The notes: generated from the sequence alone by a model not told the origin. A stretch of DNA of 64,000 bases from Alphaproteobacteria bacterium (GCA_964291415.2 OZ219917.1:1152001-1216000); one strand, 5' to 3'; counted from the stretch's first letter, positions 6,014-10,696 are shown. Program-made: numbers and translations.

Positions 6014-6422
6014 CTGTGTGCCGAGCATGACTGGCAGCTTGGAGGTGGAAGTCCTCCATCCAGCCCGATGGCGGCGAAGGATTAGCGAAGCGCAAGGACG
6101 TTGTCGTGAGGCAGGGTCTGAAGGAAGCGTGAAGCAAAGCCGTGAGCGGGTGGACAAGAACCGGATCCGAGGCCTTCCCGGCCGGACGAGCGGGCAGATG
6201 ATCGCGAAGTCCAGGGCCATCAAGGGCCGGAGTGGTGAATCCGGCGGATGTGCGGTGAAAGCGATTGGTTTTACCTCGGGAGGTCTGCGCCGCGTCCGGA
6301 AGCGCCGGACTGAGCGGCTCCGCAAGGGCCGTGATCGCGGTGCAGAAGTCAGCAGAGGGCATAGTAACCGGCGTGCCGGCGAAGGCCTGAACGGTGGACA
6401 GGGCTAGTAGGACGGCAGGCTC

Positions 6423-6987
6423 ATGCGGACCATGCGGCAGAGCATCCAGTTGGAACTGGCCTTGGAGCCGGAAGTAAAGGGTGAAGCCCGGAGCGCCGGA
6501 GACCGAGGAACCGAAGCCCGCATGGCGCGTGCCGAACCCGAACACCCGCGGTCGGGCGGGGACCGACGATGGAGGCGGCCCTGCAGCCCGGCATTGTGAA
6601 GAAGGCGCTGGCGCGTGTCCGGCGCAACAAGGGAGCGCCCGGCATCGACGGCATGACCGTCGAGGAGTTGGGCGCTTATCTGAAGGACCACCGGCCCGAG
6701 AGCAGGTCCCGGCTTCTTGACGGCACCTACGAACCGCGGCCGGTACGGCATGTCGAGATACCGAAGGCATCGGGAGGCCTTCGCCCTCTCGGTGTGCCGA
6801 CGGTGCTCGACCGCTTGATCCAGCAGGCGGCAATGCAAGTGCTCCAGAGAGACTGGGACGCAAGCTTCTCGGAGGCGAGCCATGGGTTCCGACCCGGACG
6901 CTTGGCCCATCAGGCGGTAGAGCGCGCGCGGGAGCACATCCTCGCGGGCTACGTTCATGTGGTTGATCTCGATCTGGAGAAGTTCTT
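6423..6987 (+). pseudogene. ltrA: Intron reverse transcriptase/maturase, 5' part
   Basis: VRRNKGAPGIDG, IPKASGGLRPLGVPTVLDRLIQQA, SHGFRPGR, VDLDLEKF then break. Confidence 0.9.
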
Positions 6988-7014
6988 GGAAGCATTGTCA
7001 TACTGCCCCCCAGC

Positions 7015-9225
7015 TTATGCGGAGTGACCGAAGAGGTCCGGCTTATCGTCTACAACCCTGATACGTAGAGCCTTTTTTCTTCCGGCGCGGACATGGATGG
7101 CGTCGAGTTCGCCACGCTTTACACGTTGCAACACGGTCTGACGGGTCACACCGAGACGCTGCATGGCCTCGATCATCGGGACGTAGCCGGGCGGCGCCTC
7201 TTCCATGAGCCTGGGACGGAACGCGTCCGTGATGCGGATGCGCCACGGGGCTCCCGGCGTGACTTGCTCACCGTCGATGAAGCCGTCATTGAGCCATCGA
7301 TGCACCGTCGAGGTTGCGATGCCGAGTATCTTCGCCGCCTGGGCGATGTTGACCAGCTCGCCATCGGTGGCCGCGGTCGCTGGATCGAAGCACGGAATGC
7401 TCCAGTGCCGGCGGAGATTGCCGACGCGATGGACATTGAAGGGATGCCCGTAGGCGGTTGTCTTGCCCTGGCGATTGAGTATGGCGGCGATCACCGCATC
7501 GGAATGGAACTGAGCGAGGCGGCGGACCAGATCGATGATGTCGTCGTCGGTGCGGACCGCCGCCCGTCGTTTGCGCGGGCGCTCGAGTTCGATCTCGGTC
7601 AACAACCCGGTCCGCCAGCGCAGTGTCAGGTGGATATGATACTCGCCGCGCGGGGCAAGAACGATGACCTCATCGAGCACCGTGCGCAGCAGCTCCTTCC
7701 TGTCGCGAGCCGTCGTCGTGGGCGCATCCCAGGCGCGCTGGAGATCCTCGCCGAGGGCCAGGAGCGAATCGCGCTCGGCGGCATCGAGTTGGCGCGGCCG
7801 GTCGCGATGACGCCGCTCCATCTCATTCTGCGCTTCTTCGAGTGCGTTCAGACACTGCTCCCATTCCCGTTCCAGCCCGCGGGCGACGAGACGATGTTCG
7901 GGCTCGACAGCGCGATACCGGCGCTCGGCCTTCTCGGCCTCGTAACGTGCTCGCTCGACGGTGAGCCCCCATTGCTTGAGCGCCTGATCGTAGTCCGCCT
8001 CGATGCGCTCGACCGCCTGCAAGGCGGCCTTGATGCCGGCCGGTCGGATCGCCTCCAGGACGGCCTTGGCGACCGCCTGGTCGATCTGCACGGCCCCCAC
8101 ATGCAAGCACAGGGAGCGCCGCGCCTCGACCAGCTCCTTGCCCCTGCAATGATATCCGGGCGAGGAGGTCCGGCCGGTGTAGTGGGTCGCCAGGCGGCGC
8201 CCGCACTCGCCACAGATGCCGAGACCCTGCAGCAAGGCCGTTCCCTCACGCACCGCTCCCTTGCCCGCGCCATGCGACAGCGGCCGGGTGTTGCGCGACA
8301 GGCGCTCGAGAATGGCTTCGTGGGTGGACCAGTCGATATAGGCGGGATGATGGTCGTGGATCAGTACCTGCCATTCGGAGCGGGGCAGCCTGCGGATGCG
8401 CGTGCGCACGATGCCGTTCTCGTCGACATGGCGCTCACGCCGCGACTTGCCGTAAGCGTAGGCGCCGGCATAGACCGGATTGGTCAGCACTTCATGGATG
8501 GTGTGATAGGCGGGCGGTTCCCAGCGAAGCTCGGCATGGCGGTGGAAGCGGTGGGGAAAGTGCAGCTTCTCCATCACGAACCAGCGCCACACCCGGCGTG
8601 CCGATCCGAACTCGGCGAATCGTTCGAACACGGCGCGGATCGCGGCCTGAACCTCCTCATTGGGGTCGAGAAGGATCTCGGCGCCGGCCTCGCCCCGGAT
8701 GTATCCGATGGGCTGTCCTCGGTAGAGCTCACCGCGCGCCGCCTTGTTGCGGATTCCGCCATCGAGCCGTGCTCGCAGGATATGAAGCTCCGCCTCGCTC
8801 ATGGTGCCCTTCAGTCCCAGGACGAGTCTGTCGTTGAACAGGCCGGGATGATAGATGCCGTCGGCGTCGCCGATCAGGGTGTCGGTCAATCCGCACAGGT
8901 CAAGCAGTCTGTACCAGTCGGCGTTGTTGCGGGCGAGTCTCGACACCTCGAGCCCGAGCAGGAGCCCGACCTGGCCGAGGGCCACTTCGGCGGTCATGCG
9001 CGCGAAGCCGCTGCGTCCTTCGGCAGTGGCGCCCGAGAGGCCGAGGTCCTCGTCGACGATCGTGATCCGGTCGGAGTGCCACCCCAGATCACGGGCGCGA
9101 TCGGCCAGGGCGTACTGGCGCCGGGTCGACTCGCGGTTGTTCTCGACCTGGGACGGCGAGGACTGGCGGACGTACACGAGGGCACGGCGTTGCCGATGTG
9201 CAGCACAGATCTTGCCATCAGTCAT
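7015..9225 (-). CDS. Large serine recombinase (resolvase + recombinase + Zn-ribbon, C-terminal HTHs)
   Basis: YVRQSS catalytic motif, EDLGLSG, EVSRLARN, LTNPVYAG, CGECG; 736 aa. Confidence 0.93.
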   Translation of the reverse strand: MTDGKICAAHRQRRALVYVRQSSPSQVENNRESTRRQYALADRARDLGWHSDRITIVDEDLGLSGATAEGRSGFARMTAEVALGQVGLLLGLEVSRLARNNADWYRLLDLCGLTDTLIGDADGIYHPGLFNDRLVLGLKGTMSEAELHILRARLDGGIRNKAARGELYRGQPIGYIRGEAGAEILLDPNEEVQAAIRAVFERFAEFGSARRVWRWFVMEKLHFPHRFHRHAELRWEPPAYHTIHEVLTNPVYAGAYAYGKSRRERHVDENGIVRTRIRRLPRSEWQVLIHDHHPAYIDWSTHEAILERLSRNTRPLSHGAGKGAVREGTALLQGLGICGECGRRLATHYTGRTSSPGYHCRGKELVEARRSLCLHVGAVQIDQAVAKAVLEAIRPAGIKAALQAVERIEADYDQALKQWGLTVERARYEAEKAERRYRAVEPEHRLVARGLEREWEQCLNALEEAQNEMERRHRDRPRQLDAAERDSLLALGEDLQRAWDAPTTTARDRKELLRTVLDEVIVLAPRGEYHIHLTLRWRTGLLTEIELERPRKRRAAVRTDDDIIDLVRRLAQFHSDAVIAAILNRQGKTTAYGHPFNVHRVGNLRRHWSIPCFDPATAATDGELVNIAQAAKILGIATSTVHRWLNDGFIDGEQVTPGAPWRIRITDAFRPRLMEEAPPGYVPMIEAMQRLGVTRQTVLQRVKRGELDAIHVRAGRKKALRIRVVDDKPDLFGHSA

Positions 9226-9379
9226 GGTCGATGCTCTCCGCCTGGGGCTTCTCCGGTGCCGCCTTGGCGATGACCTCGGCCAGCCGTTCGAGCACGACGC
9301 GGCGTGTCTCCTCGTCGAGGGCTGTCCACAGCTCCTCGTGCGGTTCCCGGGTTCCCGGAAAGATCAGGTTCAGTTGCAT
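9218..9379 (-). CDS. Small helical accessory protein of the recombinase element
   Basis: MQLNLIFPG...LWTALDEETRRVVLERLAEVIAKAA, overlapping the recombinase start. Confidence 0.5.
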   Translation of the reverse strand: MQLNLIFPGTREPHEELWTALDEETRRVVLERLAEVIAKAAPEKPQAESIDHD

Positions 9380-9695
9380 GACAGGGCTCCGCTTCAGAAC
9401 GAGCGAGCAGAGCATCGACGAGAGATCGCAAGTGCAACAGATCGTGCGGTCCGGCTGTGAGTTGATGACCGGTCCCCGGTTGTCCGGTGGCATCGCCGGG
9501 CACGGCATCCGTCCACTCGACGGGAACAAGACGGCGGCTGCCGTCAGGACCAAGAAGGAGAAGAAGCAGGACGCCGTCCTGCCGGCGAATCTGCTTCAGG
9601 ACTTCAAGCGACTGGCCCTGATAGGGATGCGCCTCGCGCGTAATCCTGACCGAGACCGGAAGCTCACGGAGGTGGGTAGTGTGTCGGGTGGTCCT
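9222..9695 (-). CDS. DUF5372/Y4bD-like ORF with no 5' start codon inside the integrated element
   Basis: Open frame from the junction: RTTRHTTHLRELPVSVRITREAHPYQGQSLEV...GPDGSRRLVPVEWTD. Its stop overlaps the recombinase ATG (ATGA). Confidence 0.6.
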   Translation of the reverse strand, partial: RTTRHTTHLRELPVSVRITREAHPYQGQSLEVLKQIRRQDGVLLLLLLGPDGSRRLVPVEWTDAVPGDATGQPGTGHQLTAGPHDLLHLRSLVDALLARSEAEPCHATEPDLSGNPGTARGAVDSPRRGDTPRRARTAGRGHRQGGTGEAPGGEHRP

Positions 9696-9696
9696 T

Positions 9697-10525
9697 CGAC
9701 CGGGTGAATCACGACATCCTGATGGGACTGGTGGCCAAGTGCGTGGCCGACAGATGCCTGCTCAGGCTCATCTGCGGCTTCCTGACCGCGGGGGTTCTGG
9801 AAGGCGGTGGTCGGTCCAAGCACCAAGAAGACGCCGCAGGGTGGTCCATTCTCGCCCTTGCTGTCGAATTGGATGCTCGACGTTCTGGACAAGGAACCGG
9901 AGAAGCGTGGCCACGCTTCGTGTGCTACGCCGACAGCTGCAGCATCTACGTGGGGTCCCGGCCGGCGTGCGAGCGGGTCATGGCAAGCGTGACGAGGTTC
10001 CTCGCCCGGCGGCTGAAGCTGAAGGTCAATGCAGATAAGAGCGTGGTAGATTGCCCGTCGGCGCGGGCCTTCCTGGGCTTCAGCTTTACCGCTGCGCGGG
10101 CAACGAAGCGGCGGATCGCGCCGCAGGCGCTCGCCCGGGTCAAGACACGGGTCCGGGAGATGACGCGCTGCACCAAGAGTGCCAGCCCTGTTCGTCTTGT
10201 CGCGGAACTCTCCCGCTACCTCATCGGGTGGCGGGGCTACTTCGGCTTCTGCGAGACTCCCTCGGTGCTGCGCCGCCTCGACCAATGGGTCCGACGGAGG
10301 CTCCGCGCCATCATCTGCGACTGTGGAAGCGCGGACGCACCCGCTATGCGGCGCTGCGCCGCCATGGGCCGTGGGCACTGCCGGCGGTTTGAGCCGCCAG
10401 GTCCTTGCCCACGGCCCATGGCGAATCAGCGCCAGCCCTGCGCGCTGCTACGCGCTGCCCCACGCCTCTTTCACCAAGCTTGGCCTCGCGACCCTTGCGA
10501 GCCATGCTACCGCGCAAATCCATCG
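9697..10525 (+). pseudogene. ltrA: Intron RT/maturase, 3' part, frameshifted, YADD changed to YADS
   Basis: DRVNHDILM; TPQGGPFSPLLSN in another frame; FVCYADSC, FLGFSF, GWRGYFG, LDQWVRRRLR. Confidence 0.88.
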
Positions 10526-10696
10526 AACCGCCGTGTACGGACCCGTACGCACGGTGGTGTGGGAGGGGCGGAGCCGCGAGGCTCTCCCCTATCCCGATTT
10601 GCATCGTCCCTCGGACCGGCCGCCGAGCATTGTTCCAGCCGCGATCTACAGTCATCCTCCCGCTTTGCTGCGCTCCCTACGATTGAGGCCCGCACG

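Follow-up and report, generated by a model that had tools for sequence, protein, structure and literature searches.

The inserted element and its interrupted reading frame

The stretch of DNA analysed here (the window) comprises 64,000 nucleotides of an Alphaproteobacteria bacterium (GCA_964291415.2, OZ219917.1:1152001-1216000), and our subject is an element of 2709 bp at 6988-9696 of the large serine recombinase (LSR) type, which lies antisense within the reverse transcriptase (RT) gene of a group II intron. The same three bases, CTT, stand at its two ends (left core copy at 6985..6987, to which no strand is assigned, and right copy at 9694-9696), and the crossover dinucleotide is probably the TT within them. 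A second copy in the same genome, inserted at the same motif of a different group II intron RT gene, fixes the element ends, and contigs with empty sites (related uninterrupted RT genes from two public runs) skip 2709 or 2710 bases, from 6984 to 9694/9695, with three ambiguous bases at the joint. Because the second copy and the empty-site contigs agree, the element is taken to be 2709 bp long with a TT or CTT core; past this shared core, no target duplication is seen at the junctions. The contigs of run X1 match the window copy without gaps.

The recombinase, 736 aa long (7015..9225, minus strand), carries Resolvase (61.4 bits), Recombinase (65.7 bits) and zinc-ribbon (Zn_ribbon_recom, 27.6 bits) domains, all over the Pfam cut-offs, followed by a C-terminal extension, and it is also matched in NCBIfam and in PHROGs (phrog_95 integrase, E 7.6e-55). 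The extension, of about 200 aa, contains two helix-turn-helix (HTH) motifs of the excisionase/MerR type, HTH_17 at residues 625-666 and a second at residues 686-719 (window 7018-7360 corresponds to residues about 620-736), and such a double-HTH extension is unusual among large serine recombinases.

Ahead of the recombinase, on the same strand, lies the body of an open reading frame (ORF) for a DUF5372 protein (9222..9695, minus), which is open from 9695 to 9225 and whose TGA (9224..9222) overlaps the recombinase ATG (9225..9223). It has 157 codons and no start codon, as neither ATG nor GTG nor TTG occurs in it before 9503, i.e., none ahead of or inside the domain. The Pfam family DUF5372 (PF17342) matches residues 19-95 over profile positions 2-76 of 78, with 24.1 bits against a cut-off of 25 bits, and the relatives P0003-P0005 have a precomputed PF17342 match; NCBIfam and PHROGs give nothing for this ORF.

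The frame begins in the P arm of the element (9674..9696, minus), which consists of an outer motif (9674-9683, plus strand), an 11-nt spacer and the right core, and whose DNA also codes for the first residues past the junction, R-T-T-R-H-T-T-H. In the opposite, P' arm (6988..7014, minus; outer half-site motif 6999-7008), an ATG at 7001 (7001..6999, minus) points out of the element 13 nt past the recombinase stop, preceded by an outward Shine-Dalgarno (SD) run GGGGGG (7011..7006) and four bases, and followed by the four codons ACA ATG CTT CC(A), which lead into the core. When the ends were joined by script through the CTT core, these 5 codons and the 157 of the body gave one in-frame ORF of 162 codons. 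An earlier reading made from the DNA letters only (the sequence-only reading) had claimed the DUF5372 frame open to the element end without a 5' ATG, the outward G-run and ATG, and the 162-aa product whose stop overlaps the recombinase ATG; the first two are borne out and the scripted join agrees with the third. Integration interrupts an ORF of the element itself, since the attachment (att) site is inside its own gene, and the recombinase stays a whole 736-aa ORF when integrated.

The gene list of that reading, DUF5372 frame and recombinase, is right in both entries and overlooked a third conserved gene. This is an ORF of 53 aa (9379..9221; 9218..9379 in the ORF list, minus) that starts M-Q-L-N-L, lies in the third frame under the tail of the DUF5372 ORF, has its own Shine-Dalgarno sequence and stops 8 nt beyond the recombinase ATG. 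Counterparts are annotated in two plasmid loci (L004, L005), and an alignment of 46 unique sequences has codon-position entropies of 1.17/1.00/1.40; judged by this alignment, the small ORF is a real conserved protein, for which Pfam, NCBIfam and PHROGs hold no family.

The junction frame in relatives and in joined DNA

Relatives were collected with an alignment of three recombinase sequences, scanned against one genome per species, and 586 were confirmed; the best 80 of these, together with the window and the two plasmid loci (L004, L005), form the set of 83 loci used below. The kept relatives come from Acidobacteriota, Pseudomonadota, Verrucomicrobiota, Gemmatimonadota and other phyla. A position weight matrix recovered the same P' arm in 80/83 loci, and the DUF5372 domain is found upstream of the recombinase in 79/83, the remainder being cut or interrupted. 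Ten loci are not evaluable, owing to contig ends or, in the case of L008, to an insertion of the IS21 type, so that 73 have both ends. For the protein alone, a database search gave 1608 DUF5372 relatives at E <= 0.001, and a word-indexed homologue search only 4 matches.

The two-base core is the same at both ends in 71 of the 73 loci (mostly AA, with AC in L007 and L010-L012 and AT in L009), and therefore the rebuilt junction is unambiguous and in frame. Across it, an in-frame start on the P' arm is present in 71/73 loci (67 ATG, 4 GTG), of which 69 are clean and two doubtful owing to unequal cores, namely L043, where the P' arm is one base short, and L056, with a core mismatch; the frame is broken in L014 and L072 (2/73). 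Counted as unique junctions (n = 61), the usual ATG is kept in 48, and the other 13 comprise seven with an in-frame ATG 3 or 6 nt downstream, four with GTG at the usual place and two that are broken. Where the distance from the P motif to the domain has changed, it has done so by whole codons (+3 in L027, +3 in L063, +1 in L064). The same geometry, ATG, 11 nt and core, in frame, is met in a distant subfamily, represented by L090 on a Mesorhizobium huakuii plasmid (NZ_CP050297.1, 181689-185137), whose DUF5372 protein has 35% identity; this element encodes DUF5372, an extra HTH protein of 161 aa and a recombinase of 822 aa, and it lies antisense in the istA gene of an IS21 element at a ..RDKG.. 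motif. The sequence-only reading had made its proposal depend on a frame relation shared by homologues and on a crossover that does not shift it, and both are found here, the second also through junctions present as contiguous DNA in three metagenome contigs.

In the integrated state, in-frame ATG, GTG and TTG codons are absent between the nearest upstream stop and the domain in 58/73 loci, and no start is found from the element boundary to 12 codons into the domain in 41/59 unique loci. Among the best 150 database representatives of the protein, 76 begin inside or after the stretch coded by the P arm, 3 begin at the motif, 55 with long and 14 with short N-termini (not ending in Pro), 69 together, read as flank-coded, and 2 have the form expected from the junction; junction-like N-termini are those of P0025 and P0040. 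Since those 76 of the best 150 begin mostly at the first residues of the domain, an internal GTG start was considered, with the locus set serving as the unbiased sample. The candidate, at the Val of V-T-I-T-R, was rejected, as it occurs in 14/59 unique loci, which equals the background of GTG among Val codons (70/312). It was the sole recurrent candidate, and a conserved internal start, which would have spoken against the earlier proposal, is not found.

Eight of the database proteins (P0006, P0009, P0012, P0032, P0038, P0058, P0088 and P0111) share a 7-residue N-terminus, M-S-G-x-W-H-R/Q, before the residues coded by the P arm, and there is apparently one class of targets that provides the integrated element with an in-frame ATG. 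In most records the gene is uncalled because its start sits 2.7 kb away: in 24/30 plasmid records there is no annotated feature under the match, a soft count as the plasmid gene tables are incomplete, and the sole annotated "DUF5372 family protein", that of L090, was given an ATT start by the annotation pipeline PGAP.

A degenerate pattern of the rebuilt junction was searched in metagenome contigs and matched four of them, three of which hold true junctions (L086, L087, L089); the fourth, L088, was rejected as an unrelated match by chance. The three true-junction contigs run from the recombinase 3' end through Shine-Dalgarno sequence, ATG and junction into DUF5372 and on to the recombinase 5' end, with an unbroken ORF of 175 aa through the junction in L087 and a frameshifted one in L086. 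The third, L089, has identical 127-nt ends that close it into a circle of 2727 bp with no foreign or flanking DNA; its only two ORFs are one of 165 aa that begins at the junction ATG and the recombinase of 739 aa, which it meets in an ATGA overlap, and past the recombinase 13 nt lead back to the junction ATG. The closed circular operon that had been deduced for the window is present here, in a relative, as contiguous DNA, where assembly cannot distinguish a tandem dimer from a circle. The pattern has no match in viral contigs and none in 401 assembled genomes of the phylum, the window's own included, which is what a transient form would lead one to expect.

The DUF5372 frame reaches the recombinase ATG in 58/73 loci, through ATGA in 53 and TAATG in 5. 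When the small ORF was recoded synonymously with the codon usage of each locus, 7.6 of the 46 unique loci were expected to have the DUF5372 frame open, against 37 observed, and in the third frame, as a control, 4 were open against 4.8 expected. Because the tail of the DUF5372 protein is poorly conserved and predicted to be disordered, we read the open frame as selection for ribosomes reaching the recombinase start, and we infer that translation of the DUF5372 ORF is coupled to that of the recombinase.

The DUF5372 protein and the explanations of the split gene

The structure model of the DUF5372 protein, built on a 57-sequence alignment, has an SH3/Tudor-like barrel (residues 15-62) and a helix (residues 83-102), with a predicted local distance difference test score (pLDDT) >90 for 56 residues, and a C-terminal tail rich in Arg, Gly and Pro. 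Barrel and helix are conserved across phyla, with R20, H23, P50 and W61 invariant, and a fold search with the model gave generic SH3/Tudor/KOW-like matches only (best E 9.4e-3). When the LSR was modelled in complex with DUF5372 residues 1-112, the score was 0.68, and that of the best of three controls 0.00; the mark of the tool is reached by 58/80 solved complexes and 2/110 mismatched pairs, a calibration that is only rough for alignments made here. At least 72% of the contacts are shared between runs, and the partner pLDDT is at least 66. The predicted interface brings LSR residues 338-342, 362, 392-405 and 477-543 together with DUF5372 residues 21-25, 51, 53 and 77-104, and in the model the DUF5372 helix docks on the zinc ribbon and the coiled-coil base. 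The prediction is, therefore, that the protein binds where zinc ribbon and coiled coil of the LSR meet, the place occupied by directionality factors. In the accessible part of PMC12286644, verified recombination directionality factors (RDFs) of LSRs, which are small and diverse in fold, are likewise predicted to bind the integrase at the junction of DNA-binding domain 2 (DBD2, the zinc ribbon) and coiled coil. The role of an accessory-protein cofactor, which the sequence-only reading had suggested, gains model-based support from a complex that passes its controls.

We consider it probable that the gene is one completed by circularisation, and that a circle-specific DUF5372 cofactor, together with a boosted recombinase, steers the non-replicating circle into its target. 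A minimal LSR transposon would insert site-specifically, with a TT core, antisense into a conserved motif of RT genes; its own att site (attP) would lie inside the first gene of its own operon, with the Shine-Dalgarno sequence, the ATG and four codons on the P' arm and the 157 codons beginning in the P arm. Integration would separate the DUF5372 gene from its translation start, and excision to the circle would restore it. In the circle, ribosomes from the junction ATG would make the DUF5372 protein and end on the ATGA overlap, by which recombinase translation would be coupled to the circular state, and the same ribosomes would traverse the region where the small overlapping ORF begins. Excision may be the task of the 53-aa protein or of the additional HTH motifs of the LSR. 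Whether the DUF5372 protein acts on integration or on excision is a guess; a circle-specific integration cofactor is favoured because a classical RDF must be present when the element is integrated, and DUF5372 is not. The recombination-state switch as such, proposed earlier from the letters, is supported by the comparative evidence, i.e., the conserved junction frame and the lack of an internal start, and by real junction DNA.

More tentatively, and as a claim on which we would not yet lean, all this may belong to a widespread and so far undescribed family of minimal LSR transposons that parasitise other mobile elements, target conserved catalytic motifs in the genes of group II intron RTs and of IS3-type, IS21 and further transposases, sense their own state via an attP-split gene, use an RDF-like factor acting for integration, switch on the recombinase through the ATGA overlap and, by ribosome traffic, silence a second small protein of the integrated state.

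Several observations weigh against a circle-specific cofactor. The loci are mutually related and many come from error-prone long-read metagenome-assembled genomes (MAGs), and the score of the complex is a confidence of the model and no measurement. No sigma-70-like promoter is found in 6700-10000 (0 promoter-like sites, and 1 terminator-like site against 1.3 expected), a scan outside of which the joined sequence lay; a joint-spanning promoter could not serve the junction ATG, because that ATG lies in the P' arm. The third-codon-position entropy along the recombinase gives no clear signal of an embedded promoter at its 3' end, with a modest dip at codons 691-705. In the contigs of four runs, no joint turning back on itself is seen, a result that comes from contigs only and by which a circle in the window strain is neither shown nor excluded. 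The second genomic copy (L002, G000:C1:115482-118203), as assembled, has the junction ATG out of frame and a frameshifted recombinase.

Compared with the window, L002 has six single-base insertions (at 7003, 7325, 9163, 9228, 9288 and 9379), one substitution and a changed left junction, which has 3 bases in place of 5. None of the insertions merely lengthens a long homopolymer, most of them give a CG-containing context, and they are absent from the run X1 contigs; one X1 contig, at 2x flank depth, starts exactly at 6983, the first base common to both flanks. There is a hint here that the insertions and the junction change are assembly errors.

The most direct objection comes from the geometry of the att site. 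Both arms carry similar 10-nt motifs at the same distance of 11 nt from the core, as inverted half-sites (motif-11 nt-core-11 nt-motif) common to the family, and the ATG is formed by the last three bases of the P' outer half-site motif, G-G-G-C-A-G-T-A-T-G, while the partner motif of the P arm, taken in the same strand sense, is ..G-T-G-T-G, with GTG at the place of ATG. This fixed geometry alone would hold the ATG in phase with the P arm, with no selection for translation needed, and what looks like a Shine-Dalgarno sequence, the G-run, may instead be a binding motif. In an explanation which we regard as unlikely, G-run and ATG are only the outer binding motif of the recombinase, the frame match is a by-product of inherited symmetric att geometry, and the integrated element produces the DUF5372 protein from a non-canonical start or one provided by the flank, or barely produces it. 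Such an account would fit the 15/73 loci with some in-frame start in flank or element, the 69 of the best 150 database representatives with N-termini read as flank-coded, the recurrent 7-residue type included, and the ATT start annotated in L090; in addition, the control by reading frames is weak, as the stretch from ATG to domain is open in 58/61 unique junctions in the DUF5372 frame and in 41 and 15/61 in the other two. However, where the motif ATG has been lost, an in-frame ATG at a distance of 3 or 6 nt or a GTG takes its place, and only L014 and L072 are startless. An internal start is not conserved, the 58 loci mentioned have no start at all when integrated, and the DUF5372 domain is well conserved as a protein. 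The frame is also open to the recombinase ATG far past chance, which is sensible only if ribosomes read it from upstream. Taken as sequence evidence, start relocation in frame, the lack of any other start, in-frame indels and a frame open to the recombinase ATG speak for translation from the junction.

A different objection accepts the protein and its binding site and questions its direction. A classical RDF is needed for excision, and a gene that is off when integrated fits this awkwardly. We give little credence to the possibility that DUF5372 is nevertheless such a factor, which promotes attL x attR and blocks attP x attB recombination, so that splitting of its gene locks the insertion and excision takes place only with the factor in trans, from a circle or a flank-started copy. 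In its favour are the predicted interface, which is the known RDF site in the accessible text of PMC12286644, and the circle junction, a symmetric attP-like site that should follow the canonical logic of LSRs; several copies per genome are frequent (e.g., L074-L078 and L021-L023), and some targets provide an in-frame ATG. Against this, an RDF peaking in the circle would block re-integration of a non-replicating circle, and the fact that the ORF is coupled to the recombinase start points to a role at times when the element has to integrate. Excision could be served by the two extra excisionase-type HTH motifs of the LSR, or by the second conserved small protein, which is intact when integrated. 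Unlike the known RDFs, which in the part of PMC12286644 available to us are expressed from the integrated element to trigger excision, the DUF5372 gene is without a start codon in that state, in the window as well as in the 58/73 loci and 41/59 unique loci given above.

That the long ORF is a mere leader which brings ribosomes to the recombinase start, its DUF5372 peptide having no cofactor function, is very improbable, for although the stop overlaps the recombinase ATG in 58/73 loci and the tail is disordered in prediction and poorly conserved, the barrel and helix with their invariant residues are kept across phyla, the relatives number 1608, and the complex model passes its controls.

Relation to known systems, target genes and further observations

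Circles of IS911, IS30 and IS2 have junction promoters, and elements of the IS110 type rebuild a promoter; these insertion sequences (IS) use DDE or DEDD transposases. The window element would resemble them in that the circular or integrated state controls the expression of transposition proteins, and it differs from them, as it has a serine recombinase and joins a translation start to an ORF, where they join a transcriptional signal. For Tn4451/Tn4453, with the LSR TnpX, Lyras and Rood reportedly described in 2000 that the excised circle is non-replicating and that its joint forms a promoter for tnpX. The likeness is close, as in both cases an LSR element forms a non-replicating circle and the joined ends would switch on expression needed for re-insertion; unlike the promoter said to arise at that joint, the joint here completes a coding sequence, with Shine-Dalgarno sequence, ATG and four codons on one arm, that is coupled to the recombinase. 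In mycobacteriophage integration-dependent immunity, which Broussard et al. are said to have described in 2013, attP lies in the repressor gene, whose 3' end is removed so that a shortened protein is active in the prophage. There too attP is inside a regulatory gene whose product differs between the integrated and the free state, but the end removed is the 3' end and the product is activated, whereas here the 5' end is removed and the gene would be silenced.

In the accessible part of PMC3158075, TnpX is described as an LSR with a 2-bp target. The SSV-type integrases of Sulfolobus fuselloviruses, as far as the text available of PMC5861418 goes, have the att site inside a gene of the element that is whole only in the circular form, as in our case; unlike the tyrosine integrase gene of these archaeal viruses, which is split near its middle, the gene divided here is an accessory one, in bacteria, with the break 5 codons behind its start, and the recombinase is whole. 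In ICEKp1, recombination genes are expressed differently in the integrated and the excised state through the joined ends (PMC13023037, accessible portion), a similarity that does not extend to the mechanism, since that source, in the same portion, has a tyrosine integrase, a 3'-end promoter and a host tRNA promoter with no ORF assembled, and here an ORF is assembled.

The literature search, with subscription journals, ISfinder and supplements beyond its reach, returned no paper on "DUF5372", no serine-recombinase element whose attP parts the translation start from the body of an RDF-like accessory gene, and no description of this element family or of a habit of inserting into conserved motifs in the genes of other mobile elements. 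State-dependent expression via joined ends is already known, and what would be new is the attP-split translation start in an LSR element. LSRs are leading tools for inserting large DNA, and the chief engineering problem still to be solved is how to control the direction in which they work. If our proposal is true, a natural system is at hand in which a cofactor gene is physically wired to the recombination state, in a compact 2.7-kb element with a predicted cofactor-integrase interface, and, on the more tentative reading, the usual directionality logic of serine integrases would be reversed, since the factor would act for integration and not for excision. It would also be the translational counterpart of the junction promoters of IS circles and the bacterial accessory-gene counterpart of the split integrase gene of the SSV type. 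The family is, in addition, a case of mobile elements specialised for insertion into conserved genes of other mobile elements.

The host intron is recognised on the plus strand by its RNA domains D1-D4 (6100..6387; Rfam RF02001, 117.9 bits, and RF01998, 52 bits) and domains V-VI (10526..10598; Rfam RF00029, 43.6 bits). Between them, also on the plus strand, the N-terminal half of the RT ORF (6569..6987; Pfam RVT_1, E 2.3e-10) forms the left target arm and ends in ..DLDLEKF(F), and the interrupted ORF continues towards its C-terminus with FDRVNHD.. (9694..10400), with frame breaks of its own; the insertion point is at an FF|D motif. Past the insertion, the host RT ORF shifts frame at least twice (window 9694-9990), and the contigs of one run have a 2-base insertion behind 9807. 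Judged from its reading frames, the host RT ORF is a pseudogene or misassembled, quite apart from its interruption.

Group II RT sequence abuts the P' end in 65/80 loci, and elsewhere the targets are IS3-type, IS21 and other genes. The copies L007, L010, L011 and L012 (also L008) and L009, in Vicinamibacterales MAGs, are not in RT genes: in four, the element (core AC) has entered a transposase gene of the IS3 type at a ..FSRRVVGW.. motif, and in L009 (core AT) a different transposase-like gene. All of these non-RT Vicinamibacterales copies retain the junction frame. In L008, at 1900-2430, the 5' part is replaced or interrupted by an IS21-type element, and IstB-like sequence is found there.

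Some relatives have additional DNA behind the recombinase stop, ahead of the P' arm: in L074-L078 it amounts to about 130 bp and includes a small ORF, and in L057, L072 and L081 to 190-350 bp. The element can therefore carry a little cargo. Many short-read MAG contigs measure 2.7-3.1 kb, roughly the size of the element, and stop at its boundaries or close to them (L013, L015, L025, L027, L063, L066, L071 and L085), which is expected because multi-copy repeats break assemblies.

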